Of a DNA stretch of 64,000 bases, positions 1-58,833 are shown piece by piece (within the stretch, counting starts at the first letter, position 1; each line of letters starts with the position of its first letter). The stretch is taken from the IMG/VR virus record IMGVR_UViG_3300031867_000010, positions 1-64,000 of that record. One strand, given 5' to 3'. Both the position numbers and the translations under genes were made by a program. Below the pieces are notes generated by a model, which made no database searches, had not been told where the DNA came from, and saw nothing but the letters and a program-made list of their open reading frames with translations. The stretch comes from a virus. Its lineage: Duplodnaviria; Caudoviricetes.

Positions 1-163
1 TTCGATAGTCGTTGAACCTTACCTAAATAAATATTTAGGTCTTGGCTGCTGATTGACTCTATTCATTGAATTATTACACTTTGGTATCAATGACCTAACA
101 AGTTCGTCCCAGCAATTAAAGAGGTTTGTTATATACATTACTATATAAAGTGACCCATTATCA
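1..163 (-). ncRNA. Group I intron in RNAP beta gene (5' part; continues beyond window start)
   Basis: Starts right after codon GAT of ...CGNSD. P1: exon AGUGAU pairs with IGS GUCACU, with U.G at the splice site. P2 hairpin has a GUAA loop, and an R-like UCAACGACUA is present. Positions 1-127 are identical to the gyrB intron core at 58670-58796. Confidence 0.9.
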
Positions 164-1555
164 ATCACTATTCCCGCATGTGAGCATATCAATTCTTCCA
201 ATATAACTTGGGTGTAATCCTCTGTATTTCTTTGAAATACTTTTAGATGTTTTTCTTCCTGCACTATGAGGTCCTTTAACAGTATATTTCAATCTACTGA
301 AAAAATCCATGTCATTAATATTTTCATCAAATCTAAGAACTCCAGATGCGTGCATTTTCTGGATAAGTATCATGCCAGAAAATTTGAATATATCAACAAT
401 ATTATCCATAGTTGCTTTATTTCCAAGATTTATTATTCTATTAAGTCTTGTTGAAAACTCTGTTGTCAAAAGACTGGCAATATATTCATGACACCTAAGT
501 CTCTTATTTTCAAGAGACATATTTTCTTTTAGTCTTAAGTTATCAAATTCCATCATAACCCAACGTATAACAGCATATATATTTTCTTTATGATAGTCAT
601 TTACTTTTAAGATATTTTTTGTGGTCTCATCAAGCATACGATTAAAGCTTGTAAGAGTTTCCAGTCCTTTTTCATAATTCTTACCATGAGTAAGATTCTT
701 AATAAAAGGTGTCACATCATTGATATTATCTAAAGAAAATTTCTTTGGAAGAATTTCAAGAAGTCCTGCTACAATTCCTTGAATATATCTGTATTTTATA
801 AACAAGTCTTTTACAACTTCTATATAACATGATGATGATACCTGAAAATATAAGCAATCGTTTTTTCTGTCTTTCAATGATTCCACTAATCTTAAAATAT
901 ATGCGACGTTCAAAAATGATAATGCTTCTAATATACCGTATCTTGATACAATGAAAAGCATTATATCAGTTTCCCTTTTAAACACAAAGGTTTTAAAATG
1001 TGGCATAATATATCCTGTTCCATCAACATCTTCATATATTACTGGCATACGTTTTACAACAACAGGCATAAGAGATTTAACAACTGTAGATGTTAGTGTT
1101 GTGTATGTTGACTTTTCTACAAGTTGATAGATAAGATAATACTTTTTACCATTTATAAATAAAAACCCATCTTCATCAGCAATAGGAATAAGCATATCTT
1201 TATTTATATATTTCTCTTTTAGTATATTCTTACCTGTCTTTGAATCTTTTTCTGTGGCTGTTATTTTTAAATGCACTGTCAATAGTCCAACTCTGTTGTC
1301 GAGTATGAGTTTAGTATCATACTGGGATTTTTTAGGAACACCCATTTTTCTTCTATAGACATGCCTGTTAATATCTATATCACTTTCCTTTCTACTAAAC
1401 TCGTATCCTAAGAATTTTATATTCTTTAAAACTTCCAAGCTTTTCCAAGCATCAACTACCAATTCTTCAAGAGGTTTATCATCTTCTTTTGTAATAAGTT
1501 TTGTATTAAGTTGGTCTTCATAAGTACCAATATAATCTGACAAATATTTAAGCAT
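164..1555 (-). CDS. Phage multisubunit RNA polymerase beta subunit, N-terminal part, exon 1
   Basis: FINGKKY-type segment and C-terminal RGLHPSYIGRIDMLTCGNSD resemble the beta R..HPS..GR.....P.G motif. The ORF ends at the intron. Confidence 0.8.
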
Positions 1556-1609
1556 TACTTCCCTCCTATTTAAATAGAATTTTCTATGAACCGATTAAAG
1601 ACTAAAAAA

Positions 1610-1646
1610 TGAGCTTGAGTGAATATTTCTATTCAACTCAAGCTCA
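1610..1646 (-). terminator. Intrinsic terminator
   Basis: TGAGCTTGAGT/ACTCAAGCTCA stem followed by a T6 run on the minus strand. Confidence 0.7.
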
Positions 1647-1691
1647 CCTGTAAATTATAGCACCGTTAGGCTATCAGCAGAATTAAATCAA

Positions 1692-2417
1692 TCAGTCTTC
1701 GTTCTTCGCAGTAATTATTCCATCTTGCTTGAGGTTGCCTTTTTCAAAAACTTGAGGCTTATATGAAATATTAATTCCATCATCCATTCTTCTAGCATAA
1801 ATCTCATAGCATCCACACACATTAATGTGCTCTTCAAACACCTCTTCTGGATCTTGCTCTGATAATTTGAGCATCATATATTTAACAATACAATCATGTA
1901 TTGTGCAAAAGATCGGCATTACAATACATGATTCAGCAACCTTCAAATCAAGGTCATTTCTGAACTTTGAAACAGCAGCTGTTGAAATTTTATCAATAGT
2001 AGTAAGATCTGAAGTAATATTCTGATTAAACCATTGATTGCATCTAACAACTGAAAGTGTTTCTTCTTCATTAATCTCTGTGAGTCGGTCATTCTCAAGA
2101 TGCTTCATATATGGTGAAAAATTCCCATATTTTTCAAGATCATTGTTTTCCTCAACGTCAAATGTTGATGTATATCCGATTTCCAATCTGTCAGCAATTA
2201 TAATCTGAACGCTTTCCTGCTTGTCTCTGGTGGACTTAAGAAAGTCCATGATAGCCTCAAAGGTTTTCATATAAGTAGCCATAACCCCTTCCAAACTATC
2301 AAAATTAATCTTGAAATCTGAATATATCTTTGTCTTAGCCATACTAGCTATTTGTAAAATATCATCAAGATCATCCACTACATTGTCATTAAAATAAATT
2401 TCTGCCTTACTGCTCAT
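1692..2417 (-). CDS. Hypothetical protein (acidic, 241 aa)
   Basis: Long ORF with GGAGG RBS, overlapping the upstream ORF. Confidence 0.8.
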   Translation of the reverse strand: MSSKAEIYFNDNVVDDLDDILQIASMAKTKIYSDFKINFDSLEGVMATYMKTFEAIMDFLKSTRDKQESVQIIIADRLEIGYTSTFDVEENNDLEKYGNFSPYMKHLENDRLTEINEEETLSVVRCNQWFNQNITSDLTTIDKISTAAVSKFRNDLDLKVAESCIVMPIFCTIHDCIVKYMMLKLSEQDPEEVFEEHINVCGCYEIYARRMDDGINISYKPQVFEKGNLKQDGIITAKNED

Positions 2418-2868
2418 TCTTTTTTCCTCCGTTTTTCTTATTATTTTTATTTGGCAACTTCTTTGTAGAACTCTTAGAATTCTTTTTATCTAAGAAGTTT
2501 ACCTGTGATGATAATATATTATTCAAAAACGAAAGTGCAATATCACTACTATCAACAGATTCCTTTGAGAATAATAACTGTCCAGTCGTAGCATTGATTA
2601 TCATGGTAAGTTTTTTATCATTCATATCTTTGTTAGAAGCATGGATTATAACCAAGAAATTTGATACAGCTTTTCTAACCTTAACCTGCACTGCAAATGT
2701 TATAACATCTGACATCTTTTCTTTGCTATCATTCATTGTATAGCCTATAATAGGATTGATATATTTCATATCATGTTTAATGCTTACAGCAATATCTCCG
2801 ATGCTTTTAAAATAAGCTTCTTTGTCAAAATTTGTTTGTTGTGTTTGGTTCATAATTATCTCCTCCAT
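2407..2868 (-). CDS. Hypothetical protein
   Basis: 153-aa ORF in the minus-strand operon. Confidence 0.75.
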   Translation of the reverse strand: MEEIIMNQTQQTNFDKEAYFKSIGDIAVSIKHDMKYINPIIGYTMNDSKEKMSDVITFAVQVKVRKAVSNFLVIIHASNKDMNDKKLTMIINATTGQLLFSKESVDSSDIALSFLNNILSSQVNFLDKKNSKSSTKKLPNKNNKKNGGKKNEQ

Positions 2869-2877
2869 AAAGTAATT

Positions 2878-3369
2878 TTAATTATTTGATAGACTATATA
2901 CCTCATCCTGATTGAATGATGATATTAAGTCTACATTACCGCATTCGCTCAAAGGTACAACTGTTATTGACATATAACTATTTTCGTCTTTTGCCAACTC
3001 TTTTAAGTTTTCAACTGATAATGGAAGATTAAATCTTTCTATTATAGATTCATAAGTGCTTTTATTTGCAACAACATCTACCATTATTTTATTTGGATAT
3101 AAAATTGATGTGAATAGTCCTATATTAAGTTTGTCATTCATATATATTTTAACAATAACTTCAACTAAATATGGTTGTTTTACATCAGGTAATTCTTCTA
3201 ACGGAGTATCGAACAAGGTATCGTTACTATCTGGTATTACATTCTCAAAAGATTTTTCAAAAGACTTCTTTTTCTTTTTCTTCTTTTTCTTCTTATCTGA
3301 AGATTTGAAATAAAAGCTTTTATCACTTTTCTTTTTCCCATCTCCAAATATATTTTTGAAATCATTCAT
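2878..3369 (-). CDS. Hypothetical protein with N-terminal poly-Lys tract
   Basis: ORF with K10 run and GAGGG RBS. Confidence 0.75.
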   Translation of the reverse strand: MNDFKNIFGDGKKKSDKSFYFKSSDKKKKKKKKKKSFEKSFENVIPDSNDTLFDTPLEELPDVKQPYLVEVIVKIYMNDKLNIGLFTSILYPNKIMVDVVANKSTYESIIERFNLPLSVENLKELAKDENSYMSITVVPLSECGNVDLISSFNQDEVYSLSNN

Positions 3370-3437
3370 TTTTTTAGCCCTCTTTTATAAAGGCTATAAA
3401 TCTATACCTTATAAATTTATAGCCCTTGTGCAATTTT

Positions 3438-4073
3438 TTAATTCTCAGAGTTTTCAGGAAGCTTTACTGTAAGACCTATACTAGCAAACTTATTTACAAT
3501 AGCAATTATTCTGGCAGAAAGTCTTAACTTATTTTCACCATTATATTTTCCAATAATACTTGGTGTGACTTTCTTCACACATTCTTCATTGCTTGCTCTA
3601 CAATACTCATTGACAATATTACTTATAATAGTATTGGGAGAATCACTTGCAAACCCTATAGATTTTACAGTAACCTTTTCATCAGCAGGAATAACTAATA
3701 CTAAAAACGACCCGTTGGAAGTAAATTCATCAGCATCAATATCAAAACTTATCTCAACTAAACGAGGAAGATTTGAATTCTTACTGTCATTCTCGATAAG
3801 TTTTCTTAAATCATCGAATCCATCAATTCCTATAGTATCAACAAATGAACCTTTTTCTGGTTCACTAATATCCACAGATGGCATACGAATGTTATCAATA
3901 CTAGCAACTTCCTTAGTTTTCTTTTTCTTAGGTTTGTCCTTTTTCTTTTTGTCTTTCTTTTTACTGTCCTTATCTTTTTTGCTGTCTTTGTCTTTCTTAG
4001 ATTTCTTAGCATAAAATTTGCTAGAATCCTTCATCTCAAACATCTCAGTGTAATTCTTCTTTTTCTTACTCAT
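3438..4073 (-). CDS. Hypothetical protein with Lys/Asp-rich N-terminus
   Basis: 211-aa ORF with KKDKDS repeats, overlapping the upstream gene. Confidence 0.75.
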   Translation of the reverse strand: MSKKKKNYTEMFEMKDSSKFYAKKSKKDKDSKKDKDSKKKDKKKKDKPKKKKTKEVASIDNIRMPSVDISEPEKGSFVDTIGIDGFDDLRKLIENDSKNSNLPRLVEISFDIDADEFTSNGSFLVLVIPADEKVTVKSIGFASDSPNTIISNIVNEYCRASNEECVKKVTPSIIGKYNGENKLRLSARIIAIVNKFASIGLTVKLPENSEN

Positions 4074-4500
4074 CTTCCATTATTCCTTTCAGTTTCTTTT
4101 TAAGTCTATCAGAATCAAATTTTGCTTTGAGTTCTTCAGCTTTGTCTATCTGGCAGTTAATAACTTTTATTAATGACTTCATATCTGTTTCACTAATATC
4201 AAGTTTTGTCACCTTGGATTCATACATGAGTGTATTATTTTCACAACCCATCTTATTTAAGTATTTCTTATAATCTGTCATTTTAAGATCTGCAAGCTCT
4301 GATACCACTAATGGAAAGCCTACTTTTCTTTTATAAAGTAATGCTTTGATCTTAGGGTCTTGGGTTGTTTCGCAGTGATATAAACCAACTTCACCGTTTT
4401 TGACAAGTTCGGAATAAGTCATTTTGACTTCCTTTTTCTTCTTGTCTTTTTTCTTTTTCCTCTTGGATTCCATTCCAAAGATTGTCCATTCATTTCCCAT
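4066..4500 (-). CDS. Hypothetical protein, Lys-rich N-terminus
   Basis: 144-aa ORF with GGAGG RBS. Confidence 0.75.
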   Translation of the reverse strand: MGNEWTIFGMESKRKKKKDKKKKEVKMTYSELVKNGEVGLYHCETTQDPKIKALLYKRKVGFPLVVSELADLKMTDYKKYLNKMGCENNTLMYESKVTKLDISETDMKSLIKVINCQIDKAEELKAKFDSDRLKKKLKGIMEDE

Positions 4501-4559
4501 TATTTTTTTCCTCCATTTTTAAAAAGTATTAATAAATAAGTTAAATGTAAACTAACTTT

Positions 4560-6685: not shown

Positions 6686-6740
6686 TAACTATTGATGAAA
6701 TAATTGAAATTCATTTTAGTCTTTAAATGATATATTATTG

Positions 6741-7080
6741 ATGTGTAAATTAAGTAGTTCAGTTACTTTAAATTATCACTGCGTGATAAACTTAATTACA
6801 TATGAGGGTAAAAATATAAAAGATACTATAGCCTATATCCTATAGTATCTTTTATAAATATGAGAGTACCCTACTCTCAGAAAGGAGGCATAATGTATGC
6901 GTGTTTATTACACCTCTAAAGACGGGAAAAGTCTTTGTGTATGACGAAAACGAGCCACACAAAGACAATAGTGCTACCAGCACTATACATTGCGATAGAA
7001 TATATCGTAATAAGAAGTATTTAGAAAGTAACCAAATACTTTAATAAAATGTTGGATGTTTATAAATTATATAAAACTTA
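6741..7080 (+). ncRNA. Putative highly structured RNA or long 5' leader
   Basis: Chain of about 8 hairpins directly after TATATTAT at 6731, including one ~17-bp perfect stem. Confidence 0.45.
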
Positions 7081-7371: not shown

Positions 7372-7555
7372 AGATAAAAAAAGAAAATAATATTTGAAAA
7401 ATAATTAAGTTGCAAGCACAGTGACATAAAAATTGTTAAAAAGAGAGGGTTGAAATATATAGCCCTCTCTTTATTTTTTTTAATAACCCATCTAAAAGCA
7501 TCAAAAAACATTCTTTATAATAACACATAGCATCTTCATGAAAGGAGTTTGTTTT

Positions 7556-10500
7556 ATGGCTGTTAAAAAAGAGAATCCAGATAAATTAGTTACTAAGAAA
7601 AAAAATACCAAACTAAATACACAATGGCTAAAAAACGCCACAAAATCAATAGGAACTATTGCTGCTGATAGTATATCTTCCTTAGTTCCAAATTTATATA
7701 CAACAACCACTACAGCTGCCCAACTTACTAGAAATTTAAGACAGCTTAGAAGAAATCAAGGAAGTATTAGAAGTTCTTTAGAAAAAAACCAATATATCAA
7801 ATTTGGTAAAACTTTTATAAAGAATTCGTTACAAGACTTAAAAAGTGGTAAGTTATATAATGAAAGTCGTGACAGTTTTGGTGGTGGAGATGACGAAGAA
7901 TCTACTGCTACTTATTTTGGAGGAGATGAAGAAAATAACGAAGAAGGATCTTCAGAATCCCCTCAAATAAATGTGAACCTAAACCCAGAAGGGTTTAATA
8001 ATGTAAGCAATTCTATAAATAAACTTTCTGAAATACAACTACAAAGTACAAAAGCAAACATCGATGCAATGGTGACAACATCATCAACTGCACTTGCAAT
8101 GCATCAAAAAAATGCTGATGCAATTATAAGTCATTTGTCAAATATTAATAATGGTATAGAAGCATTGGTTAAATTTACAAATGAAAACATGAATAAATTT
8201 ATAGAAACTAGCAATGCTTATTATGAAGCTACTGGAAAAGCTTTCGATGAAAAAACCGAAAGAAAAGAAGGTACTAAAGCAAGCTTAGTAAAAGAAAATG
8301 GTATATTAAATACTGAAAACTTTTTAGGATTTTTGAAAAAGTCCTTCAAGGAAAATTTTGAAGCAACAGCACCTGGTCAGTTATTAAATACTATATCAAG
8401 TGCAAAAGATCAACTTGAAGCTAACCCTATTGGTACAGCACTTTCGTTGATAATATCGACATTTATGCCAGATAATATTAAAAATCCTTTAAAGAAATTA
8501 GACACTCAATTTGGTCAATTACTTACATCAAGTATTATGAAAGCCTCTTCAAAACTTAGAAATAATAGTCAAGAGGGAATACTTGGAAGTGTAATGACAT
8601 TTCTTGGAGATACTTTAAACATAACACCATCGAGAAAAAATACTGTTGATGATAAAGAAATTGATACTAGCGCTGCTGTATACGATAAAATATCAAGAAC
8701 AGCTTTGGTTAATGAAATACCAAAATATTTAAGAGAAAGTACATCCTATCTTAAACAACTTGTACTTTTAAATGGTGGTGATCCAGATAAAGCTATATCT
8801 AAATCAGAAATTTTAAATAGAAGTACTGGAAAATATGAGTCTTATGATTCATTCAGAAAAAATATTATGGGTGAAATCATGAGCTACACAACAGGTGCTT
8901 TTAATAATAGTGATTTCAGTAAAGATTTATATAAAGCAATGTCAATATTTGAAAAGGACTCTGAGAAAGAAGACTATGAAAATATCATAAATAAATTATT
9001 CTTGGAACTTGAAAAAAGTAATATTGACATTATAGATGAAACTAATATTAGTAGTATTATCGGTTCTTTAAAAGGAACGGATCTTAGTAAAAAAGTATTA
9101 CAAAATGCTATAGAGAATACCTTCAATAATGGTAGTTCTCTTTCTATTAATCCTTTGAGAATAAAATCGAGAAATAATAGAAATAAAATAATAACTAGAC
9201 TTGAGGATGAAGCTGGATTTAATTTTGCTGATCTTGTACCAGAAGGTCAAAATATAGATGATGCTATGAGTTCAATTCTTTATGGTACAAACGATGACGC
9301 AACTGCAATTCATACAATTCATCCAAATTCTGTAATGGGTAAATTAAAAAGTATTGAAGATATTCTTCTTAGAGGAATAAATGTAAAAGTAATGCATGGT
9401 GCTCCATTCCCTTCAACAGTACTTGGAAGCACTGATAACTCAACACAAACAACTGGAAATACTCAACAAGGTTCAACAACAGGATCTGGAATTTGGATAC
9501 CTAATTCAAATCAACCATCGTCTAATACTGATGCTACAACAAATTCTGATAATAACAGACAATCTATGGAATCATTATCGGATGAAGAATTATCCAGACG
9601 TATTTTGGAAGCAACTGGTGGTGCTGAAGAAGAACCTGCTAACGATGAAAACGTAAAAAGAAAAGGTTATAAATTTTTTGATAATGGCTATGGTCATGTA
9701 AGCAATATGATGAAATTTGCATTTGCTGGTAAATTTGGTCTTGTAGGTAATGAATTTAATAGTATGATGGGAGATAGCTTCTCTAATCTTGGTATTAAAT
9801 TAAAAGATAATATTCTCATACCTACTAAAAATGCTATCTTTGGAGAAAAGAAAGATGGTGTTTATAAAAACGGTATAATGCCAGATTTTGCAAATGCTTT
9901 CGTTGATATGAAAAATTCTTTTTTGCATATGTGGGATGGTCGAAAATATAAAAAGACTAATGGTGAAGAAGTTGACGAATCTGATAAAGAAGAATCCATC
10001 ACCGATAGAATTAAAAATGTATTCTCCAATTTAAAAGATGATACTAAGAAATTCTTTTTTGGAGAAGAAGGTGATAATACTAAGGATGCTACTAGAGGTG
10101 TTCTTGGTGCTGGTGCTGATATAATACGAGAAGGATTCGATCATTGGAGAAATGCTTTATTTGGAGAAGATTCTGATCCAGATGAAATTAGAAAAGATAT
10201 TGCTAATAAAGTTAAAGAAAGACTTCCAGATACTATTATTGGTGCTGGTGCTGGTGCAATACTTACATCATCTTTTGGAGGACTTCTTGGAGACATAATT
10301 GGTGGACCAGGTCTTGGATTGATACTTGGTGGTCTTACTGGATATGCTAAAAAAAGTGAAGGATTTCAACGTTTTCTTTTTGGTGAAGAACAAGAGATGA
10401 TTGATGAAGACGGAAATCCTGTAAAAATAAGAGATGGTGGGTTAATATCAAAAGCTACTAGAGATTTCTTTAAGAAAAATAAAACTGAGATTGGTGCTGG

Positions 10501-13500
10501 TTCTATAATAGGTGCTGTGCTTGGAAGTACTGTGAGAGATGGAATTATAGCTAAAGTTCTCGGTGGTGGTTTTCTTGCTCATATGGTTGGTGGACCCGTA
10601 GCCGGTGCAATACTCGGTGGAGCAACAATGATGGTTAAAAACTCTAACGCATTTAATGAGTTTTTGTATGGTAAAGAAATTGAAGAGCTTGATGAAAATG
10701 GTAATACGAGAAAAAAAGTTATTGGTGGTATCTTAAATGGATTCCAAAAAGTTATGGGAAGGAATGGAATTGCAACTAATGATGAAGGTGCTATGAAAGA
10801 CAATGCAAGACGTATTGCTGGAATGAGTGCTGTTGCTACTGGTGGTGGCTTGCTTCTTGGTATGTTTACTCCTCTTGGACCTGTTGGTGGAGCAATACTT
10901 GGTCTTTCAAGTACAATACTTGCATCTAAAGATAAGTTTCATGATTTACTTTTTGGAAATAAAGAAGATAAATCAGGTGGTAATCATGGTTTATTAAATC
11001 AATTAAAAGCATTGATTGCTGCTAAAGTAGTAAATCCTATGGGAATGCATTTAAAGAATGCACTGGAAGATATAAATGATGCTCTTCTTGATAAAATACT
11101 AGATCCTTTACAAAACTTAATTGGACCAGCATTTGGTTGGGTAACAAGTGTCAAAGATAGAGTACTTGATTTATTTGAAGATTCCTTTGACACTATTAAA
11201 GAGGGGTTTATGAAACTTCCAAAAACTATCACAAATGGTTTTACTTCTTTACTTGGTAAAGCAATGAAACATCTTTTTGGAGATGGCTTAACTAAAAAGG
11301 TTGCTAATGTTGTAACATCAGTACCTGGTGCTGTGGCTAATGGTGTAGGAAATCTTTTTAGATGGAGAAATAAAAGTAATTCTTTAAAACGATGGAGAAG
11401 TGATAGATTTAGGAATGATGAAAGAAATAGAGAAGTTTTAGAAAAAGCTCAAAAAACTTGGGACGATGAATGGAACGCTATGTCCGATGAAGAAAAAGAT
11501 GAATGGGGTTCATATGAAGAATTTATCGAAACAAGAGATAGAGAAATGGGTGAAAATTATTTCTATAATAGTGGTGATGATAGAGCAACAAAGCTTGCAT
11601 TACGTACTGAAAGAAATAAACAAAAGAAAGAAAAAAGAAAAGCTAAACAAAGAGAATCTGATACATCATCTCTTATAGCAACATTGACTGGTGGTAAGTA
11701 CACAGAAGTTACTGAGGAAAATAAAAAGAAAGCTTTAGCTGAATATAAAAAAAGTAGAAAATATAGAAATGGTAGAGGTGTTGGAGGATTCAAAGGTTCT
11801 GAAGTTTTAGAGTTACTTAGTGAAAATCCTGATGCTGATAATAGTACTACAAAAGCTGTATCTGACGTTATAAAGGATGCTGTTGATATGACTCCAGTAG
11901 AGCATGCCTCAAATGGAATCAAGAATATTATAAGTTTCTTAACTGGTGCTCCAATAGCTGGTGCTGAAGCTTTAGGTGATATTGGTAATGGTGCTAAAAA
12001 CTTGACTGAAGTTATCGTTGATGCTATGAGAAAAGTACATCAAGAAGCACTTGACACAAAACAATCTGCATCTGATAGAACACAAGAATTTCAAAAAAAT
12101 CTAGCACAAGAACAACGAGAAAATGAAAGAAATAAAATCGCTCAAAACTATGTTGAACAACAAGAAAGACTTAGAGAATGGTCTGGTCACGGAGACTTTA
12201 CCGATGAAGAACGTGAACAACTTGCTGAAGATGCTCAAAGAGTAGGAGAATATGAAACTAGAAATAAAAAGTATAGTGCTCCAACATTTGAAGGTGGTGC
12301 TCATATAAAAAAGAAATTTTATAGAGTTCCTATATTTGGTAAGATGTTTGATAGATGGAGTTACGAAAAGCATTTCAAAAGAGCTACAAGAACTGCTAGA
12401 AGAAGAAAAGCTTTTGGTAGAAGCTTAACAAATGGATTTGATTCGGAAGGTCGTAAAAGAGAAATTGAACTTGCCGATAAAATTGCTAACTCATATGGTA
12501 GAGAAAGAGCTGGATATATTAATGAGTTTAATGATCTTGTAGATGAACTTAAAGGAGATAGACAGGCATATATTGAAGATTTAAATGAAAGACAAGGTAA
12601 TTTAAATGCTGATATCAGACGCTTAATTTCACCAAGAAGAATCTTTAATAAATACAAACCTATATTTAGTCCTGAAGATAGAAGTACAAATATAAGAGAC
12701 TCTGATATAACTAGAGATGATATTATCAACGATGTATCAAATGCTGCTGATGCCTTGTTAAATCATGCTGCTAGAGAAGAGCAAGCGAACGCTCTTAGAG
12801 AACAAGCAGAACGTGAAGTACAAGGTGAAAATGAAGGTGGTAATGGCTCTGGAAAAATGTCAGTTTCTGAAGCTTTACGAAGAACTGGTGGTAGAGGGTA
12901 TGCTACAGGAAGTGAACATACCAAAGAAGGAGCTGCTGTTGTTGGAGAAAATGGTCCTGAGATAGTTCAATTTAGAGATGGAGACCGTGTTATTCCGAAT
13001 AAGCCACATTCATTAATTGATGTTAATGTAGTAAGTTTTGATAGAAGTGCTACAGAAGATATTCATTCTATTCCTACTAATGTAAATATCGTAGGTCAGG
13101 ATGGTCTTATCACTACATACAGTACTGGAGCTTCTCTTGGAGATAATACTGATAGCTCTTCTAAAATAGAAAAAGATCTTTCTACTTCAAATTCTCTCGT
13201 AAGTTATGAAGACGTTAAAAAAGATAATAAAGACGAGATGATTGAGGGTAAAGCAACCTTAATTAGTGAGCGTAAAGAAAATATACTTGATAAACTATTT
13301 TCCTTCGTAAGTGGAAATGGTGGTATTGGTGGACTTATAAAAAATATAGGACTTATAGGTGGAGCTGCTGCATTATTAGTCCCATTCTTAAAAAATGGAG
13401 GTCTTAGTAAAATACTATCAACATTTTCAGGTCAAGGCAGAACTATGAAAATGATGTTTGAAAATGATGCTTACGATGGTGGTGTTGATTTCCAAACTAA

Positions 13501-16500
13501 TTTAAAAAATCAATTAGAAGATTGGGCAAATCCATTAAATAGTGAACATGAAAATGTGGATACGTCTAATAAGGCATTATTCAACTTCGCTCGTGGTAGA
13601 TTAAATAATTTCTTAAATGGTAAAGCAGGAAAAACAGGATTAGTTAATGGACTTAAAAAATCATCGATAAGACTTGGTGAATCCGCATCAAGAAGACTTG
13701 GTGTTGATGTTGCTGAAACTGCGGTTAAAAATGGTGCTAAGAATGCTGCTAAAACTGTTGCTAAAGGAAGTGCAGAAGCTGCTACTAAAAGTAAAAAATC
13801 ATTACTTAAAACTATTTTTGGCGGTATTAAAAAAGCCTTTAAGATGGTTATTGAAAAAGTAACCAAAAAAGGAGGAAAGGCTGGAGAAATCCTTGGTAAG
13901 ATAGTTTCAAAACTTGATGCTGCTGAAAAGAAAATAGGTGAAGGACTTATAGGACCTCTTAAAAATAAAATAAATACTCTTCTTGGAAAAGCTGCTGAGA
14001 AATTGGGACTTTCTGCTGGATTTCTTGCATCTGGTCCACTTGGTTGGGTAGCTGGTTTAGTTAAGGATGCACCTTTTGTAGCAATAGCTGCATTAGATAA
14101 TTCTGGAAAAGAGGGTGCTGCTAGATTATTCAGATGCGATAAATCTATCGTTGATGGTAAGATGAGAGCCATTGCAGCTGCTATCAGAGGTCTTGCTGCA
14201 ACTACATGGGGTTCTGTCATTGATTTGATTTCTGAAATAATAGTTGCTGTTTGTGGATTTGATTTATTATCGTTTGCAGCCACGGCTATATATAAAGGAA
14301 TGAGTGACGAAGAATCTGGAAAGAAATTAGACGAAAGTCAGGCTATGCATGAAGAAGAGTATGAAAAATATAAAGAGGAAGCATTAAAAAATGAATATGA
14401 AAATTATTTAGATGAGAATGAAATTGACCCAAGTCAATTAAGTTTTGAGCAATACAAAAATCTTGTAAAAACTGGCGAAATTAGTGCTGATGTACTCGGT
14501 TATACAGAATGGAACCAGGAAGAGAACAAAACAGTCACTAATAAAATATGGGACAAAATAACTGGTAAAAGTAAAATTGCCAAAACATACGATAAGTATA
14601 AATCAATAAAAGAAGGAGAGGCTATTGTTGAGAATACTGCAAAAGAAGATGCTTTAGCACAAGCCATTAAAACTGTTCCTGTAACAGGTGGAAATGGTGG
14701 TGGATTTGGAACTTCTTTAAGAAAATCAACAAGATCATCTTTCTCTTTAAAATATGGAAAAACAAATTCAAATATCAATATAGATCTTTCTACACAAGTT
14801 GGAAATACTGTAGGAGCATTTACCAATGAGACTGATGCTGACATGAAAGAAGCTACAGATTCCTTCAAGAAAGGTGTTGAAAAACTTAATAACAAATTAA
14901 CCGATAAGCTAGACTTTAAGAATATCAAAGAATGGTATAAAAACGATGAAATAAAATTATCTAAAAATAATCAAATGGGGTCAATGCTTAAATCAATATT
15001 AAGTATTTCAAAGCACATGATGTTCCCAGTTGCTATGTTAAAATCTGGTACTAATAAAATCACAGAAGCGTTGAAAAATGTTTTATCAAGTTCAACAGAT
15101 GTTGGTACAACAACTTTAAACTATATCAAAACACTTTTATCTTATGAAGACCCTACCAAAAACTGGTCATCATTTAAAAGTGAAAAGATGACTGGTTCTG
15201 ATAAAAATGTAGTGTTTAAGTTAGTTGAACAACCAATTAAAAATGTACTTGGCATATACGTTGGAATAAAACGTGGTGTAAATAAATTAAAGAATTTTAT
15301 AAACGACAAATTTAAAGGATTTGGAGTATCTCAAATTAAAGATATTTCTGATAATTTATTCGATGATGCGACCACATCAACAACTTCTACTGCTAGTACC
15401 AATGGTGGAAATGGTGGATACGGTGGTGTTCCATTCTTTTCACAAAAAGATCCTAGATGGGCTAATAGACAGTATGAAGAAGGAGGTTCTGGAGATACAT
15501 TATCTAACGCTGGTTGTGGACCTACAGCATTTGCTATGGCTGCAAGTGGAAGTGGTGTTGATATAGATCCAGTTCAATCAGCTAAACTTATGCAAAATAT
15601 TGGTGCTAGAGATGATACTGGTACTAACTGGAATGGTATAAGTGAAGGTGCTAATGCTCTTGGTATTAGTACATCTATGAGAAGAAAACCTTCTGAGAAC
15701 TTTGTAGACTCACAGCTTATGTCTGGAAAGCCTGTAATATTATCTGGTAAGACTGGTGGATATGGAGGAACTCCTTATACACCTCAAGGTCATTATGTTG
15801 TTGCTACTGGAATGGATAGTAATGGTAATTATATAATTAATGACCCTAATAAAAAAGATGGTCCTAGGAAATACTCAAAAGACTCTATTATAAAAGAAAC
15901 AGGTGCTGCTTGGGGATTTGGTGGAAGAGGCGGTGGAAAACGTCGTGATGTTACAGAATCCCAAGAGACACAATCTGAAAATTCTGCTACACTAAATATA
16001 TCTGTAAAAAATGGTGTAACGGCAGATGATGTTATTAAAATTGCTAAAAACGAAGTTGGTTATCAAGAGAAAAACTCAACTAAAGACCTTTATCAGAAAG
16101 GTGGTTCAGATACTGGTAGTGGAAACTACACAAAATACGCAGTTGAACTTGGTCAACCAAATGGTAATTATTGGTGTGCAAGTTTTGTATCATGGGTATT
16201 TTACAAGGCAGCAAACAATAGTGCAAATATTGCAAATGCTGTTATGTGTGGTGGATTATCACCATCTTGTGAGAATATTAGAACTGCTTTTAGATCTGCT
16301 AAAAGATATATTACGACTGATCCAAAACCTGGTGATATTGTATTCTTCCAGACAAAAACTCCAGGGCAATGTAATCATGTTGGTATTGTATATGCTAATG
16401 ATGGAAGTAAGATTTATACTATTGAGGGTAATTCATCAAATTCTGTTAGAGATAGAAATTATGATTTGTCGTCATCTAAAATACTTGGTTATGGCAGACC

Positions 16501-17830
16501 GATGTATGATACTAACTCAAGTTTTAATGGAATGAATAGTAGTAGTTTTTCATCTGAATCTCAAACTTCATATAACGATTCATCTGCATATTCGACAGGA
16601 AATAGTAGTTTTGATGCTTTGTCCGCAATAGGTTCATTATTTAGTGAACTTGCAAGTAGAGCTGTGAATGGTCTTTTAACCGGTAATTACAATACCGATT
16701 GGACAGATTTTAAAAATTCATTGCGTGGTGATAATACATCTAGCACAACAGCTACTACAAATACTTCAACTAATAATACTACTACAAATACAACAGATAA
16801 CTCATCCACTTCATCTGGAAATATTACAGCGGCTAGTGTTGCTACTGGAAGTGGATATGAAGCTGCCATGTGGAAATATCTAAAATCTCAAGGAATGACT
16901 GATGCTGGTGCCGCAGCTGTAATGGGTAATATGCAAGCTGAATCATCATTAAATCCTCATGACCTTGAAAGTGATAGTACACCAGCTAAGAAATATAAAT
17001 ATACTGATGAGTCATATACTCAAGCTGTCGATGATGGTAGTTATACTAAAGACAAATTCATGCATGACGCTGCTGGATATGGACTTGTCCAATGGACATA
17101 TAAGACACGAAAGAAAGGCTTGTATGAATTAGCTAAGGAAAATAATGTATCTATAGGTGATGATGGATTACAAAAAACTTATATGATGGAAGAACTTAAA
17201 GGTTATCCAAAATTGCTTAAAGATTTAAAATCTTCTAATGATATTAGAGGACTCACAACTTCATTCTTACTTGATTATGAGAATCCTGCTGATGAAAATA
17301 AAACACCTGCTGCACAGAATAAACGTACTTCTTATTCGCAATCATTTTATAATAAGTATGCTGGAAACAATGGTGGTTATGGAGAAAATGATAAAGAAGA
17401 TAGTAATGATGAAGTATCGGCTGCTGAATTAGAAGATATTAAGAAAGATTTGTTTGATACTAAATTTGAAACTCTTAAGAGAGAAGCTAAGAAAAATGGT
17501 GGTTATGGTAGTGAAATATCTTCAACATCAATGAATATTTCATTAGATAAGTTAAAGAATAGTCGTGTTAATACAACTACAAGCAATAATAATTTACTAA
17601 ATATTGCCAAGTATCTTGAAAAGATTGTAGAATTACTAGGTATTTCATCTGATAAACTTGACTTGCTTGAAAAGCTTGATGATATAAAAGATATTACTCC
17701 TATAACATACAATAATCTTACAGCAAATAGTATAAATCCCACAAAGACAGTTTCATCAGGTAATAAGGTATCTAAGATAACTGAATCAAGATATAAAACT
17801 GCTCAAAAAATTGCTAGTGGTGGGTTATAA
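7556..17830 (+). CDS. Giant tape-measure / tail-associated lytic protein (C39-like peptidase, CHAP and phage tail lysozyme domains)
   Basis: Gly-rich hydrophobic segments and a TMP-type GYATG...VGENGPE motif. C39-like FSQKDPRW/GCGPT/GHYVV/INDP at ~15430-15920, CHAP WCASFV/PGDIVFF/HVGIV/IEGN at ~16020-16505, lysozyme GNMQAES/GYGLVQWT at ~16850-17365. Start at 7556 follows an AAGGAG RBS. Confidence 0.85.
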   Translation: MAVKKENPDKLVTKKKNTKLNTQWLKNATKSIGTIAADSISSLVPNLYTTTTTAAQLTRNLRQLRRNQGSIRSSLEKNQYIKFGKTFIKNSLQDLKSGKLYNESRDSFGGGDDEESTATYFGGDEENNEEGSSESPQINVNLNPEGFNNVSNSINKLSEIQLQSTKANIDAMVTTSSTALAMHQKNADAIISHLSNINNGIEALVKFTNENMNKFIETSNAYYEATGKAFDEKTERKEGTKASLVKENGILNTENFLGFLKKSFKENFEATAPGQLLNTISSAKDQLEANPIGTALSLIISTFMPDNIKNPLKKLDTQFGQLLTSSIMKASSKLRNNSQEGILGSVMTFLGDTLNITPSRKNTVDDKEIDTSAAVYDKISRTALVNEIPKYLRESTSYLKQLVLLNGGDPDKAISKSEILNRSTGKYESYDSFRKNIMGEIMSYTTGAFNNSDFSKDLYKAMSIFEKDSEKEDYENIINKLFLELEKSNIDIIDETNISSIIGSLKGTDLSKKVLQNAIENTFNNGSSLSINPLRIKSRNNRNKIITRLEDEAGFNFADLVPEGQNIDDAMSSILYGTNDDATAIHTIHPNSVMGKLKSIEDILLRGINVKVMHGAPFPSTVLGSTDNSTQTTGNTQQGSTTGSGIWIPNSNQPSSNTDATTNSDNNRQSMESLSDEELSRRILEATGGAEEEPANDENVKRKGYKFFDNGYGHVSNMMKFAFAGKFGLVGNEFNSMMGDSFSNLGIKLKDNILIPTKNAIFGEKKDGVYKNGIMPDFANAFVDMKNSFLHMWDGRKYKKTNGEEVDESDKEESITDRIKNVFSNLKDDTKKFFFGEEGDNTKDATRGVLGAGADIIREGFDHWRNALFGEDSDPDEIRKDIANKVKERLPDTIIGAGAGAILTSSFGGLLGDIIGGPGLGLILGGLTGYAKKSEGFQRFLFGEEQEMIDEDGNPVKIRDGGLISKATRDFFKKNKTEIGAGSIIGAVLGSTVRDGIIAKVLGGGFLAHMVGGPVAGAILGGATMMVKNSNAFNEFLYGKEIEELDENGNTRKKVIGGILNGFQKVMGRNGIATNDEGAMKDNARRIAGMSAVATGGGLLLGMFTPLGPVGGAILGLSSTILASKDKFHDLLFGNKEDKSGGNHGLLNQLKALIAAKVVNPMGMHLKNALEDINDALLDKILDPLQNLIGPAFGWVTSVKDRVLDLFEDSFDTIKEGFMKLPKTITNGFTSLLGKAMKHLFGDGLTKKVANVVTSVPGAVANGVGNLFRWRNKSNSLKRWRSDRFRNDERNREVLEKAQKTWDDEWNAMSDEEKDEWGSYEEFIETRDREMGENYFYNSGDDRATKLALRTERNKQKKEKRKAKQRESDTSSLIATLTGGKYTEVTEENKKKALAEYKKSRKYRNGRGVGGFKGSEVLELLSENPDADNSTTKAVSDVIKDAVDMTPVEHASNGIKNIISFLTGAPIAGAEALGDIGNGAKNLTEVIVDAMRKVHQEALDTKQSASDRTQEFQKNLAQEQRENERNKIAQNYVEQQERLREWSGHGDFTDEEREQLAEDAQRVGEYETRNKKYSAPTFEGGAHIKKKFYRVPIFGKMFDRWSYEKHFKRATRTARRRKAFGRSLTNGFDSEGRKREIELADKIANSYGRERAGYINEFNDLVDELKGDRQAYIEDLNERQGNLNADIRRLISPRRIFNKYKPIFSPEDRSTNIRDSDITRDDIINDVSNAADALLNHAAREEQANALREQAEREVQGENEGGNGSGKMSVSEALRRTGGRGYATGSEHTKEGAAVVGENGPEIVQFRDGDRVIPNKPHSLIDVNVVSFDRSATEDIHSIPTNVNIVGQDGLITTYSTGASLGDNTDSSSKIEKDLSTSNSLVSYEDVKKDNKDEMIEGKATLISERKENILDKLFSFVSGNGGIGGLIKNIGLIGGAAALLVPFLKNGGLSKILSTFSGQGRTMKMMFENDAYDGGVDFQTNLKNQLEDWANPLNSEHENVDTSNKALFNFARGRLNNFLNGKAGKTGLVNGLKKSSIRLGESASRRLGVDVAETAVKNGAKNAAKTVAKGSAEAATKSKKSLLKTIFGGIKKAFKMVIEKVTKKGGKAGEILGKIVSKLDAAEKKIGEGLIGPLKNKINTLLGKAAEKLGLSAGFLASGPLGWVAGLVKDAPFVAIAALDNSGKEGAARLFRCDKSIVDGKMRAIAAAIRGLAATTWGSVIDLISEIIVAVCGFDLLSFAATAIYKGMSDEESGKKLDESQAMHEEEYEKYKEEALKNEYENYLDENEIDPSQLSFEQYKNLVKTGEISADVLGYTEWNQEENKTVTNKIWDKITGKSKIAKTYDKYKSIKEGEAIVENTAKEDALAQAIKTVPVTGGNGGGFGTSLRKSTRSSFSLKYGKTNSNINIDLSTQVGNTVGAFTNETDADMKEATDSFKKGVEKLNNKLTDKLDFKNIKEWYKNDEIKLSKNNQMGSMLKSILSISKHMMFPVAMLKSGTNKITEALKNVLSSSTDVGTTTLNYIKTLLSYEDPTKNWSSFKSEKMTGSDKNVVFKLVEQPIKNVLGIYVGIKRGVNKLKNFINDKFKGFGVSQIKDISDNLFDDATTSTTSTASTNGGNGGYGGVPFFSQKDPRWANRQYEEGGSGDTLSNAGCGPTAFAMAASGSGVDIDPVQSAKLMQNIGARDDTGTNWNGISEGANALGISTSMRRKPSENFVDSQLMSGKPVILSGKTGGYGGTPYTPQGHYVVATGMDSNGNYIINDPNKKDGPRKYSKDSIIKETGAAWGFGGRGGGKRRDVTESQETQSENSATLNISVKNGVTADDVIKIAKNEVGYQEKNSTKDLYQKGGSDTGSGNYTKYAVELGQPNGNYWCASFVSWVFYKAANNSANIANAVMCGGLSPSCENIRTAFRSAKRYITTDPKPGDIVFFQTKTPGQCNHVGIVYANDGSKIYTIEGNSSNSVRDRNYDLSSSKILGYGRPMYDTNSSFNGMNSSSFSSESQTSYNDSSAYSTGNSSFDALSAIGSLFSELASRAVNGLLTGNYNTDWTDFKNSLRGDNTSSTTATTNTSTNNTTTNTTDNSSTSSGNITAASVATGSGYEAAMWKYLKSQGMTDAGAAAVMGNMQAESSLNPHDLESDSTPAKKYKYTDESYTQAVDDGSYTKDKFMHDAAGYGLVQWTYKTRKKGLYELAKENNVSIGDDGLQKTYMMEELKGYPKLLKDLKSSNDIRGLTTSFLLDYENPADENKTPAAQNKRTSYSQSFYNKYAGNNGGYGENDKEDSNDEVSAAELEDIKKDLFDTKFETLKREAKKNGGYGSEISSTSMNISLDKLKNSRVNTTTSNNNLLNIAKYLEKIVELLGISSDKLDLLEKLDDIKDITPITYNNLTANSINPTKTVSSGNKVSKITESRYKTAQKIASGGL

Positions 17831-21701: not shown

Positions 21702-22772
21702 TTAAACAGCAACTTCAAATTTTATATTGCTTACTGGATAATAATCTTCAACTGTAATGTCATCTATTTTATAATCAAAGAAATTATCTTTATTAGCAAT
21801 TTTAACAACTGGGACTGATTCGTAAATCTTAATTATATCTAAACCAGGTTTATCAAAAAGCAATGATTCTAATCTACTATTGACTTTTCTAAATATATCT
21901 AAGACATTATTCACTTCATTATCATTACTACTAGCATTAGCTCTTTCTTCCAAATAATTCATAAAATTATCCATATTATAATTTTCATAAAATTTATCTT
22001 TAATTCTCTCATCTATTGTAGAAAAATCTGTTATATCATTTATTTTATAATCGTTTGAAAGTTTGCCAATCAAGTTTGTTCTAAATTGCCCTACAGTATT
22101 TAACAAAGTATAGTTTGTGCAAAGTTCATCAGCACTTTCAATTTGATTAACATAAATATGACAGTCAGCAATACAGAAAGTCATTATTCCTGGTTTACAT
22201 CCAAGATGCCTTGCAAACAAATTATTGAGAATATAATACTGAAATATATTAAATACTCCACCTACAAGAATATCACAACTTCTGCTTGTAACAAGACAAT
22301 TAAGTTGATTACCCACAATATCCCATGTACTTGTATATACACAAGGAGTTATAACCATATCTTCCAAATCAGCATTATTCCACAAATCAATAACACATCT
22401 TCTCGATGATGGATCACTTTTTAAAGTATTTAAAACTCTATTTACCTGATCGAATTTTTTTATTTGGTATCCGTAAGTTTTCTGCACAATACCATTCTCA
22501 TCAGCCCAATCATCCCATATATGAGGATTAAGATCGTGTATATCATTACTACCATCTCTAAATATCCAAAACAGTTCCTCAATCGCAGACTTCCAAAACA
22601 CCTTTCTACTTTTTAATAATGGTGCTTTTAACAAATCATTGCAGTCTAATTGAAATATAACATTACTAAGTCTCTTAGTTAATATTCCAGTTCTTTTATT
22701 CAAATCATTGTAACCATGTTGTGCAATATTAAATATCACACTCATATAATTACTTTCGTTTTTAGAAATCAT
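21702..22772 (-). CDS. thyA: Thymidylate synthase (ThyA) with ~95-aa insertion
   Basis: RTG, EELFW, IWDDWAD, YGYQ, DPSSRR, PC (catalytic Cys), RSCD, FN, D.HIY and C-terminal VAV. Start at 22772 by AGGAGG RBS. Confidence 0.92.
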   Translation of the reverse strand: MISKNESNYMSVIFNIAQHGYNDLNKRTGILTKRLSNVIFQLDCNDLLKAPLLKSRKVFWKSAIEELFWIFRDGSNDIHDLNPHIWDDWADENGIVQKTYGYQIKKFDQVNRVLNTLKSDPSSRRCVIDLWNNADLEDMVITPCVYTSTWDIVGNQLNCLVTSRSCDILVGGVFNIFQYYILNNLFARHLGCKPGIMTFCIADCHIYVNQIESADELCTNYTLLNTVGQFRTNLIGKLSNDYKINDITDFSTIDERIKDKFYENYNMDNFMNYLEERANASSNDNEVNNVLDIFRKVNSRLESLLFDKPGLDIIKIYESVPVVKIANKDNFFDYKIDDITVEDYYPVSNIKFEVAV

Positions 22773-22838
22773 CCTTACTATCCTCCTATTTATCATATAA
22801 AATATGCACAGTTTAATGTCGTGTGCGGACATAACTAT

Positions 22839-23012: not shown

Positions 23013-23440
23013 CGTTATGTCAAATAACCATATGATTATTTAACCAAGAATTTTCAATCTTGACTGGACTATATCTTCACCCATTCTAAATAAAAACATA
23101 AAATGGGGTTGTGCGCTTCGAGATTGACCCACAAATCAATCCCTACCTTATTGATTTAACAACTCAATAAGTCGATATTTCTCAATGTCATTATATACTA
23201 GATATTTTACATTTTTGAAATAACGATAAATAGTCTCTACACCTTCATTATTTATTTTGATAGTATAAATAAAGCTTGGCACGGTATCACCATATCCATT
23301 AAGGACTTAGGCTCTCTTATCACTTTAATCTTTCGATTTAGTTGACCGTTAGCCTATCTAAAATGATAGACACCTCTTGTTAAGAGTTCACACAATTCTA
23401 TTATCCATATTACTATGGATAACGGACCTTGATTTGGCTG
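23013..23440 (-). ncRNA. Group I intron (428 nt, no ORF) in RNAP beta'
   Basis: P1 GCGGAU/GUCCGU with U.G, P10 AUCAAG/UUUGAU, R GUAGAGACUA, S AAGAUAUAGUCC and terminal G. Removing it restores NAD-FDGD in frame. Confidence 0.93.
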
Positions 23441-53496: not shown

Positions 53497-53564
53497 AAAA
53501 TTATAAAATTTTATAATTTTACATTTTATATAATAAATTTATTATATGAAAGGAATAATTACTT

Positions 53565-53867: not shown

Positions 53868-53880
53868 TGAATATAAATAA

Positions 53881-53918: not shown

Positions 53919-53929
53919 TAACCATTAAT

Positions 53930-56356: not shown

Positions 56357-56368
56357 ATTCCCTCCTTT

Positions 56369-58521
56369 CTAGTTATCAAGATCATCTGGGTCGATCCTGA
56401 ACTCTTTCATCATTTTCTTTCTAGCTTTTTTATCATGCTCAGTAGTCCCATGAAGCATATCGAATGTCTTTAGTTCTTTCTTCAAATCATTCATAGTAAG
56501 TCTTATTAAAACTCTACTATCTGGATCGAGTGTAGTATTATATAAATCCATAGGTGACATTTCACCAAGTCCCTTAAATCTGCTTCCAATCTTCGGAACA
56601 TACTTACTATACATCTCAGCGAATTCTCCTATAGAAAATCTGGAATAATCATTTGAATTACTTCCCTTTTCATTTACCATAATATAGTATCCATACTTTC
56701 TATACACATCAAATAATATATAAATCTTATCAATAAATACATTATCCAATTTTAAAAGTATTGCATGACCACTTGTAACACCTGTAAGAGCATTTTCATT
56801 CTCATCATATTTAATCTCTGGATATACTTCTTGAATAAATGAAACAAATCTCTTTATCTCATTTTGATTCTTTAAAATAAATCCTTGATTAGATTCATAG
56901 ATGTCATCGGGTCTTCTAAATTTAAATACTATATAAGCAGCTATTCTTTCTATTAAGAACTTATCAACTCTAACATGCTTAGAAATTGATATTAGATTTG
57001 ATAAATAATCAGCAGTATCAAATAAGTATTCTTTAAATTCTTCTTTTGTTATCTTCTCTTCAAAAATCTTTATATTATAATTCTTAATAACCTTTTCTTG
57101 ATATAAATCAACATATTCTTTCTTATCATGAATGAAGTTATTTTTCTTTCCTTCTTGAATACTATAAAGAGGTGGCAATGCTTTATAAAGCTTTCCAGCC
57201 TTTACCACTTCAGGAAGGCATTTTATAAAGAACGCTGAAATAGCTGATGTAATCCCATGACCATCAATATCAGCATCTGTAAGAATTATTATCTTATCAA
57301 AGTACAACTTATCCAAGTCAAAACTTTTTCCAAATCCACATCTTAAAATCTTTACAAAGTTCCTCCATTCTTTATTACCAGTATCTGGATTCATCATATC
57401 TGTAATAGATTTCTTATATGGATTAGCAGTCATTCCTCTGACTGCATAGAAAGCTTGAAAATCTGGATTTCTTCTTCTTGATGCAGAGCCCTTAGCCGAG
57501 TCTCCTTCGACTATAAAGATTTCTCTATAATCATTTTTACCAGTATTGAAACATCTATCGTAGTTCGGAATGAGTTGTTCCTTCAATGGAGTCATTGACT
57601 CTTTTGTAGAAGCAACTCTAGCTTTAGTTGATTCAATTCTTGCTTTAGCATTCATCTTGACTATTTTTATAGCAGACTTTAATTTATCTTGATTATTATT
57701 AAAATAATCACTAATTTCTTTTGTTGCACCAGCAAGTATTATATCGTAAAGGAGCTGTGAATTAATTTTTTCCTTTACATTACCCTGAAATTCCACATTA
57801 GCATTTGTAGATAAATAAACTACAAGTTTTAATCCAGCACGAATATCATTCCAAAGAATATCAATCTTTTCTTTCTCTTTCTCACTCATACTGTCCTTTG
57901 TAGCTTTTTGTAAGAAATTACAGAAAGCTTTTTCAACGGCATCTAAATGAACTCCACCTTCTGATGTATTTGTGAAGTTACAATAAGAATCATAGGTATT
58001 TTCAAATGCATCATCATATGCAAACATAATACCATATTTTGCCATTCTATGCTTTACTACTGTATCAGATTTTACTGATGGATCTGTGTTAATTACAGTC
58101 TCATCAAACAAATCTTCATGAGTTAAATGAACTGGTTCAAAATTAACCTGTTCAGAAAGCATTTCTTTTATCAATCCTATTTCATCTTGCTTAGTATAAG
58201 TTTCTTCTGATATAACCTTGAAACCATCCATTATAGTAAGATTTATAGTAGTACCTTCGTTTATAAAGTAACTGATCTGGTCAACCCATTCCTCAATCTT
58301 ATCAGTAGGAATATAGGTTTTTGCACCAAGATATTTTTTACTCGGAATCATCTTTGTTATTAAGCCATGCTTCTTTCCCTTTTTGCTTAATGAAGTCTTT
58401 TCATCTGATATTTTAACGCCTTCATTAAATACAAGCTTATGAACATATCCCTCACTTTCTCTGTAAGAAGATACTTCAAATACTTCGCTTAATGCATTAC
58501 AAGCGGTAGCTCCGAGACCAA
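56369..58521 (-). CDS. gyrB: Type IIA topoisomerase subunit B (GyrB/ParE), exon 2
   Basis: (F)GLGATACNALS, EGGVH, IVEGDSA, TDADIDG, RFKGLGEM. In frame with ORF 56369-58351. Spliced product 825 aa. Confidence 0.93.
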
Positions 58522-58833
58522 CGGTAATACCTTATATCTCTATAAAGCCTAGACTATATCTTCATCTTTATATTCTGTTACCAAATATAAAGAGCCTCCC
58601 ATTTCCATTAGTTAAATACTAATGTACTCTACTTACTTCTTCACCTAAGTATTTCTCTTAAGCTATGCTTTCGATAGTCGTTGAACCTTACCTAAATAAA
58701 TATTTAGGTCTTGGCTGCTGATTGACTCTATTCATTGAATTATTACACTTTGGTATCAATGACCTAACAAGTTCGTCCCAGCAATTAAAGAGGTTTCCTA
58801 AAACACATTACTGTGTTTGAGAGCTTGTTATCA
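58522..58833 (-). ncRNA. Group I intron (312 nt, no ORF) in gyrB
   Basis: P1 GAGAGU/GCUCUC with U.G, P10 CAA/UUG, R UCAACGACUA, S AAGAUAUAGUCU and terminal G. Removal gives GAG T|TT GGT, i.e. SGEFGLG in the ATP lid. Confidence 0.93.

Follow-up and report, generated by a model that had tools for sequence, protein, structure and literature searches.

How can two group I introns that lie in unrelated genes of one phage have the same catalytic core and different guide sequences? The question is raised by a stretch of viral DNA of 64,000 nucleotides (the window), which is the first 64 kb of a linear viral contig of 134,577 bp (G000; IMG/VR record IMGVR_UViG_3300031867_000010), window position 1 being contig base 1. 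By its gene content G000 is an AR9/PBS1-like jumbo phage. This is because the beta subunit of its non-virion RNA polymerase (nvRNAP) matches that of AR9/PBS1 and the window also codes for tubulin, gyrA, gyrB and NAD ligase, as found with Pfam. Both introns are on the minus strand, intron A in the nvRNAP beta gene and intron B in gyrB. We suggest that their cores probably undergo concerted evolution through ectopic non-crossover recombination between introns, bounded by the need of each intron to pair with its own exons.

Identity, length and copy number of the core tract

The original prediction, made from the sequence of the window, was that positions 1-127 repeat 58670-58796 in the same orientation, and the two are identical at 127 of 127 positions. 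It also held that the identity may continue past the window. This is the case, as a separate k141 assembly of the same beta gene (L043, identical to the window at 2660 of 2660 positions) gives 141/141 nt matching the gyrB intron and stops 141 nt into the tract. Because the tract begins at contig base 1, the length of 127 nt is most likely the k-mer overlap of the assembler at a collapsed repeat, and not the true tract length.

Depth was measured in the Logan contigs of a run that may be the source of the window DNA. Here the piece 58655-58796 has a depth of 57.9, compared with 18-18.4 in the unique flanks, and therefore exists in three copies. The third copy is intron C of the nrdD gene (G000:128660-128957), of which 161 nt are identical to the gyrB intron. 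Differences between the cores, named in advance as speaking against shared cores, do not appear in the contigs of this run (0 differences over 58655-58796). Describing the introns as twins was an undercount, since G000, which is about 55% complete and has 29% G+C, holds at least four copies of one intron family and four of a second. The idea that recombination between the repeats would excise 58.7 kb agrees with their geometry; such a product is absent from the assembly, and essential genes would be lost with it.

Could the identity be an assembly artefact, with differing copies merged into one consensus where the repeat collapsed? In favour of this, the contig start falls exactly 127 nt inside the repeat, the other assembly ends 141 nt into it, and a 323-nt identical pair of introns in nrdD is long enough to conceal a popped bubble. 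We regard an artefact as very unlikely, given that three independent assemblies at different k agree and that the shared piece has threefold depth and no differences. In addition, introns B, C and D (the last in a beta' gene) each join the correct exons in frame and each differ in tracts beside the identical ones, and the pattern is seen again in the related phage G010 and in the genome of the isolate AR9.

The 3' part of intron A was not found elsewhere in G000, and the other assemblies break at the same repeat. A partial match at G000:90842-91005 might have been the half that A lacks, or a trans-spliced piece. Both readings were rejected, as the match proved to belong to intron D, of which it forms the 3' half; the 5' half of D was found upstream of its HNH open reading frame (ORF). 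Jumbo-phage assemblies break at such repeats inside RNA polymerase (RNAP) genes, as in G000.

Boundaries and guides of introns A and B

Intron B (58522-58833, minus strand) is complete, 312 nt long and without an ORF, as had been predicted for the absence of an endonuclease, and lies at the GE/F site of gyrB with its omega-G at 58522. The covariance model run that had been asked for gives 69.4 bits on RF00028 (cut-off 50). Rfam applied to the whole window at the gathering threshold gave no match, whereas E-value mode found B; the difference is due to filters. Removal of the intron restores an 825-aa GyrB reading SSGE/FGLGA, and an intron-less gyrB allele in another sample (run X3, one contig) joins at the same place. 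Four segments can be distinguished along B, all on the minus strand. The site-specific 5' module (58797-58833) comprises the guide (58827-58819), P2 (58818-58801) and a linker. The core tract (58636-58796) is identical to nrdD intron C over 161 nt and to A over at least 141 nt. A 94-nt tract (58551-58644) with P7.2, the P3 3' strand, P8 and the P7 3' strand equals that of beta' intron D and differs from C in P8. The site-specific 3' tail (58522-58551) extends from P9 to omega-G.

Intron A (1-163, minus strand) lies at the NSD/P site of beta, where same-site introns are also found in L044, L046, L049 and G010, and its 5' part only is present, as it is cut by the contig start. Its site-specific 5' module (128-163, minus strand), recognised by folding and exon pairing, has the guide for P1 and P10 at 157-149 and a P2 with a GNRA loop. 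The core tract (1-127, minus strand; at least 141 nt in the other assembly) covers the P3 5' strand, P4-P5-P6 and the P7 5' strand, and is identical to introns B and C.

The proposed guide pairing stands: each guide forms its best P1 with the 5' exon of its own intron, and the guide of A reaches -6.0 kcal/mol there versus -1.4 to -2.5 with others. The folds of P1 and P2 are as described for both introns, with a z-score of -3.6 for B but only -1.1 for A. The first six bases that the introns were said to have in common are present in both. They are also found in the same-site beta intron of phage L049 and are thus weak evidence. The beta 3' exon lies outside G000, so the predicted proline at its start was judged from relatives. 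Among the roughly 90 homologues listed that bear the motif, 58 continue NSD-PGT and nine more NSD-PG, and a proline codon follows the same-site introns in four relatives, as expected. When the proteins of the beta and gyrB genes were searched against a viral contig set, no relatives came up. For a related gyrB intron in run X2 the differences were listed in part, and this intron was kept out of the quantitative comparisons.

Probably old ends and replaced cores

Intron B best reveals which part of an intron is old. The same gyrB site is occupied in phage G009, by an intron that carries an endonuclease ORF. At diagnostic positions, the two ends of B (P1, P2 and linker; P9 to omega-G) match this intron, and the middle matches the nrdD intron of its own genome. 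When compared with introns of many genomes, the G009 gyrB intron ranks first of 62 for the 5' module and first of 89 for the 3' tail, while the paralogues in G000 rank 6-45 and 13-37. The core halves show the opposite, with identities of 0.99 and 0.93 to the paralogues versus 0.86 and 0.88 to the same-site G009 intron. This switching of partners along B is significant in a runs test (p<0.0002). For intron A, four relatives have NSD/P introns with a long-P5 core (at best 0.52 to A), whereas A has a short-P5 core like B and C; the P2 of A resembles that of the NSD/P relatives.

The original prediction offered two explanations. Homogenisation of the cores by gene conversion or module swapping, with P1 and P10 staying site-specific, is well supported. 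The other, that a transposed intron acquired a new guide, is disfavoured, as P2 and the linker differ completely although they do not read the target, and variable loops of the core are identical. Furthermore, both sites hold introns in relatives, and both ends of B match the same-site intron of another phage. The term reprogrammed guide therefore probably puts the events in the wrong order: the ends would be old and the core replaced.

Whole-intron transposition deserves a closer look. It could proceed by reverse splicing and reverse transcription or by ectopic endonuclease cleavage, after which the guide would re-adapt to the new exons. The standard proposal for ectopic spread is reverse splicing (PMC3984707), and intron D encodes an HNH protein. 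A pair of identical nrdD introns, N1 and N2, also fits transposition, with the same six-base exon end and better P10 pairing at N1. For A and B the difficulty lies in the guides. That of B cannot pair with the exon of A, nor the reverse, and therefore a newly inserted copy would fail to splice within an essential gene. P2 and the linker would have to change wholly while the P5 and P6 loops stayed unchanged. An old same-site intron has ends that match those of B, the partner changes from tract to tract, the sites of A and B are occupied in relatives, and no reverse transcriptase was found in the complete relatives. We consider transposition improbable as a general explanation. For A and B it is largely refuted by the site-linked ends; for N1 and N2, and for the original founding of sites, it is possible.

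N1 and N2 also serve as an internal control for the exon constraint, because their exons end in the same six bases and their identity includes the guide; introns also occupy both of their sites in other phages.

Purifying selection on the ribozyme could in principle keep anciently duplicated cores identical, and positions in P3, P4 and P7 are indeed invariant across the family. The identical tract, on the other hand, spans stems and loops of P5, P6 and P7.1/P7.2 that vary freely in the family, and in the core halves the same-site G009 intron shows 12-14% differences. Selection also leaves the switching of partners along one intron unexplained. We give this explanation almost no credence, and selection alone appears already refuted by the variation within the family.

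Further introns of the same genome

The introns of G000 fall into two families. Family 1 consists of A, B, C and D. Intron C (G000:128660-128957) has neither P2 nor an ORF and scores 60.7 bits on RF00028 (cut-off 50). Intron D (G000:92003-90825) lies in a second RNAP beta' gene, which probably encodes the virion enzyme, and carries a 271-aa HNH ORF in P6 with a weak match to HNH_3. Since this ORF splits the covariance match, D was recognised by its exact tracts. The tracts identical to B are 161 nt in C and 39 and 94 nt in D, and P8 of C differs from both. The 5' half of D is unrelated, and C and D have a P9 type in common that is not found in B.

Family 2 also has four members. Introns N1 (L003:2095-2419 = G000:126595-126919) and N2 (L003:3452-3775 = G000:127952-128275) interrupt nrdD, and intron G (G000:92954-93297; L002:4955-5298, minus strand; outside the window) interrupts the DFDG/D motif of beta'. 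Intron E (window 23013-23440, minus strand, 428 nt) lies at the catalytic NAD/FDGD site of nvRNAP beta'. N1 equals N2 over 323 nt, and G shares tracts of 41-70 nt with both. E and G are 99% identical over 119 nt and the 3' half of E is different, so that E is a chimera of a family-2 P4-P6 and a 3' half with a canonical P7.

N1 and N2 are 1357 bp apart and have the same guide and the same six exon bases upstream. P10 fits the 3' exon of N1 better (6 bp vs 2-3 bp for N2), which suggests N1 as the donor. Identical introns with the same guide predict exon skipping in the RNA, and a single crossover between them would delete the middle exon.

All seven complete introns are preceded by U, end in G and restore an open frame at conserved motifs when removed. 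P1 folds for A, B, C and D, and the G-C pair of the guanosine-binding site in P7 is canonical in family 1 and in intron E. On the strength of the covariance model, the boundaries and P1/P7, we assign the elements to group I and predict that they self-splice. An insertion of 63-71 nt with two covarying hairpins lies between P7 and the P3 3' strand, and with these extra helices the G000 introns may be IA-like. A, B and C do not qualify as homing introns: neither B nor C contains an ORF, and P6 of A has a closed loop; D alone carries an HNH ORF, a putative endonuclease. IStrons are ruled out for all four by the lack of an ORF in B and C, by the HNH type of the ORF of D, and by four different guides and targets.

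Introns N1, N2 and G, as well as the same-site nrdD intron of another phage (L038:1564-1921), have an apparent G.U in place of the invariant P7 G-C pair, with a compensatory change beside it. The RF00028 search did not detect these four.

Generality among related phages

The intron family is widespread in related uncultured jumbo phages. In G010, a genome of 249 kb that is 98% complete, 23 introns were detected. Every one of its 23 3' halves and of the 19 scored 5' halves is nearest to an intron of its own genome, and for all but one half the values are 0.84-1.00 within the genome versus 0.70-0.90 outside. The 5' and 3' halves often have different nearest partners, and the distances of the two halves are uncorrelated (rho -0.05, versus 0.84 for a control of odd and even columns). 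A Sawyer-type runs statistic reaches 101,061, twice the permutation mean of 50,778 +/- 2,111. In a tree of 60 3' halves, same-site introns are scattered and genome labels are clustered (0 of 200 shuffles gave a value as low). The isolate AR9 has 19 RF00028 matches. Its paralogues are mostly 70-90% alike, and exact tracts of 67-80 nt occur among its introns at separate loci, counting identities and plus-strand pairs only.

Greater likeness to paralogues than to same-site introns thus holds for A, B and all testable G010 introns; it fails for G002/G003, a pair of close strains, and for the RR site of terL.

Some of these introns have features of their own. In G010:82100-87000 and 107600-117000 (L115 and L117), nvRNAP beta has six introns and one neighbouring gene has six or more, and such intron-dense genes contain micro-exons of about 10-70 nt. 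A family-1 intron at about L016:1950-2075 carries a 115-nt insert in the P6 loop with a T-arm-like hairpin, in which ARAGORN finds no tRNA. The intron of L008 has a short ORF with a terminator in P6. The nrdD gene of a related phage (L037) combines an intein-like insertion at the MGCR motif with an intron at the LYG site.

Proposed mechanism and points against it

We propose the following course. With many related introns per genome, the cores would serve as repeats scattered over the genome. When the phage recombines or repairs its DNA, a strand of one intron would invade a paralogous intron elsewhere, and a tract of about 40-320 nt would be copied, by non-crossover gene conversion or by a double crossover. 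Tracts internal to the core would be tolerated, as core modules are interchangeable, while those reaching P1 or P10 would break the splicing of essential genes and be purged, unless the last bases of the two exons are the same. A single crossover would join wrong exons and either delete a block of the genome (A/B, N1/N2) or invert it (A/C), and would also be purged. The expected outcome is that intron ends track the insertion site and the core tracks the genome. In this scheme the identity of the tracts, their boundaries and mosaic arrangement, the site-linked ends of B and the grouping of cores by genome are observed; the DNA-level recombination pathway and the role of selection in setting tract limits are what we deduce from the pattern.

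The donor of the tract could instead be complementary DNA (cDNA) that a reverse transcriptase of phage or host has copied from an excised intron RNA, with the conversion otherwise the same. Excised introns are expected to be abundant, and 45% of the G000 phage genome is missing. The related phages MarsHill and phiR1-37 encode a reverse transcriptase (bioRxiv 2020.12.14.422802). In four relatives that are 98-100% complete (G010, G009, G008 and G002), which include the most mosaic genome, G010, a search with RVT_1 found no reverse transcriptase, and the same is true of AR9. Mosaicism is not confined to phages that carry the enzyme. A DNA donor is favoured on this ground, and we hold a cDNA donor to be quite unlikely.

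Several points weigh against concerted evolution by core recombination, or limit its reach. Linkage of both ends to the site is clear for intron B only, and with one orthologue. For intron A it is weaker evidence because the 5' module does not rank same-site relatives first, and the 3' end is missing. Compensatory changes in stems cluster substitutions and so inflate the runs test. In the close strains G002 and G003, same-site introns are 97-99% alike and paralogues 68-85%, and in several genomes the nearest half belongs to another genome (for 30 of 56 and 53 of 85 halves it lies within the same one). We conclude from these two patterns that homogenisation occurs in episodes and is not universal. 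A non-allelic intron of a co-infecting relative, and not one on the same chromosome, could have been the donor. Finally, the responsible recombinase was not identified with the RecA profile, which is too insensitive for these phages.

Genomic setting

The best match for the window DNA is a bovine gut metagenome, which may be the source sample. Among RNA data sets none was listed as containing the region, a result that carries no weight in either direction. The ORF at 161-1555 matches nvRNAP beta of Bacillus phage AR9/PBS1 and of Staphylococcus jumbo phages. It holds the 5' exon (164-1555, minus strand), which codes for the N-terminal part and ends CGNSD (26-29% in tblastn with AR9, MarsHill and Machias nvRNAP beta; phmmer against AR9 nvRNAP beta, 7s00_c, E 4e-46). 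On the same strand, gyrB exon 1 (58834-59158) encodes HATPase_c, as supported by Pfam and the spliced frame, and exon 2 (56369-58521) encodes DNA_gyraseB, Toprim and gyrB_C according to Pfam. A gene of the thymidylate-synthase family (window 21702-22832) adjoins nvRNAP beta'. AR9-like phages use uracil-containing DNA.

Other features of G000 include an ORF of 3430 aa on the plus strand (window 7538-17830), which probably encodes a tail or tape-measure-type virion protein. A non-coding duplication of 220 nt, 97% identical, is found at window 6710-6928 and G000:112154-112372, and contains a strong hairpin, a ribosome-binding site and the opening codons of a short ORF. A large paralogous gene family occupies window 32100-53600, with more copies at G000:68400-69400, 89800-90000 and 130300-131500. 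Its members lie in both orientations and have common upstream and N-terminal blocks, G-runs and Asn/Thr-rich repeats. Identity reaches 98% over 263 nt, and conversion possibly homogenises these genes too.

Implications and comparison with known systems

Reviews attribute the ectopic spread of group I introns to reverse splicing or relaxed cleavage (PMC3984707, PMC2504315), and the reverse-splicing route had no direct experimental support as of a 2014 review (PMC3984707). A recent phage survey describes introns whose halves fit different subgroups (PMC11878797). The RNAP and gyrB introns of the present phage group are already published (bioRxiv 2020.12.14.422802). In the part of that preprint available to us, the target genes are the same as here (RNAP subunits, gyrB and terminase), and intron presence and position are treated without mutual comparison of the intron sequences. 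Within our incomplete coverage of the literature, we found no paper on genome-wide natural concerted evolution of group I intron cores.

These findings bear on how group I introns without an endonuclease persist and reach new sites. Near-identical introns in different genes are usually read as recent transposition, but can stem from overwriting of the cores of old introns; trees of intron cores are therefore weaker evidence of transposition in these phages. A more far-reaching idea, which we put forward as speculative and rather doubtful, is that the core is a shared, continually re-copied module in intron-rich AR9-like phages. Conversion would repair decaying ORF-less introns, move endonuclease ORFs into and out of P6, and may found new introns by setting a core between ends specific to the site, without a reverse transcriptase. 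If this were true, group I introns would have, besides homing, a means of maintenance and spread that needs DNA only, which would explain genomes with more than 20 mostly endonuclease-free introns. In any case, the phages offer a natural set of interchangeable ribozyme modules, and AR9/PBS1 is a culturable system in which the process can be measured.

IStrons such as CdISt1 of Clostridioides difficile are alike in that a single genome holds many group I ribozymes, nearly identical and at unrelated sites. An IS200/605 transposase moves them whole, always with the same guide, into a short target that is fixed. The complete ORF-less copies described here, in contrast, have no transposase or TnpB, the sole embedded ORF is HNH, and the guides differ by site. 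Ectopic conversion of tufA/tufB and of rRNA operons resembles our case in its patchy tracts and in within-genome paralogues that are closer than same-position copies. The difference is that the unit here is a catalytic RNA inside unrelated host genes, with tract ends apparently set by exon base-pairing. The orf142 and nrdE introns of phage Twort are similar in being several, related and mostly ORF-less, with several in one gene and possible exon skipping. To our knowledge, they have no long tracts of 100% identity between different genes.

The closest parallel is phage T4. Recombination between its td, nrdB and sunY group I introns was reportedly obtained in the laboratory by Hall, Liu and Shub in 1989, and Bryk and Belfort are said to have described domain shuffling of P7.1 in T4 introns in 1990. 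In T4, as is proposed here, homologous cores at non-allelic sites exchange sequence, and double crossovers swap functional modules. The T4 events were reportedly selected laboratory variants between introns about 60% alike, whereas the exchange in G000 and its relatives is natural, fixed and repeated; its tracts are 100% identical over 94-323 nt, and it extends to as many as 23 introns in one genome. Thus, core recombination is a known process, and its natural and genome-wide occurrence here is well supported.

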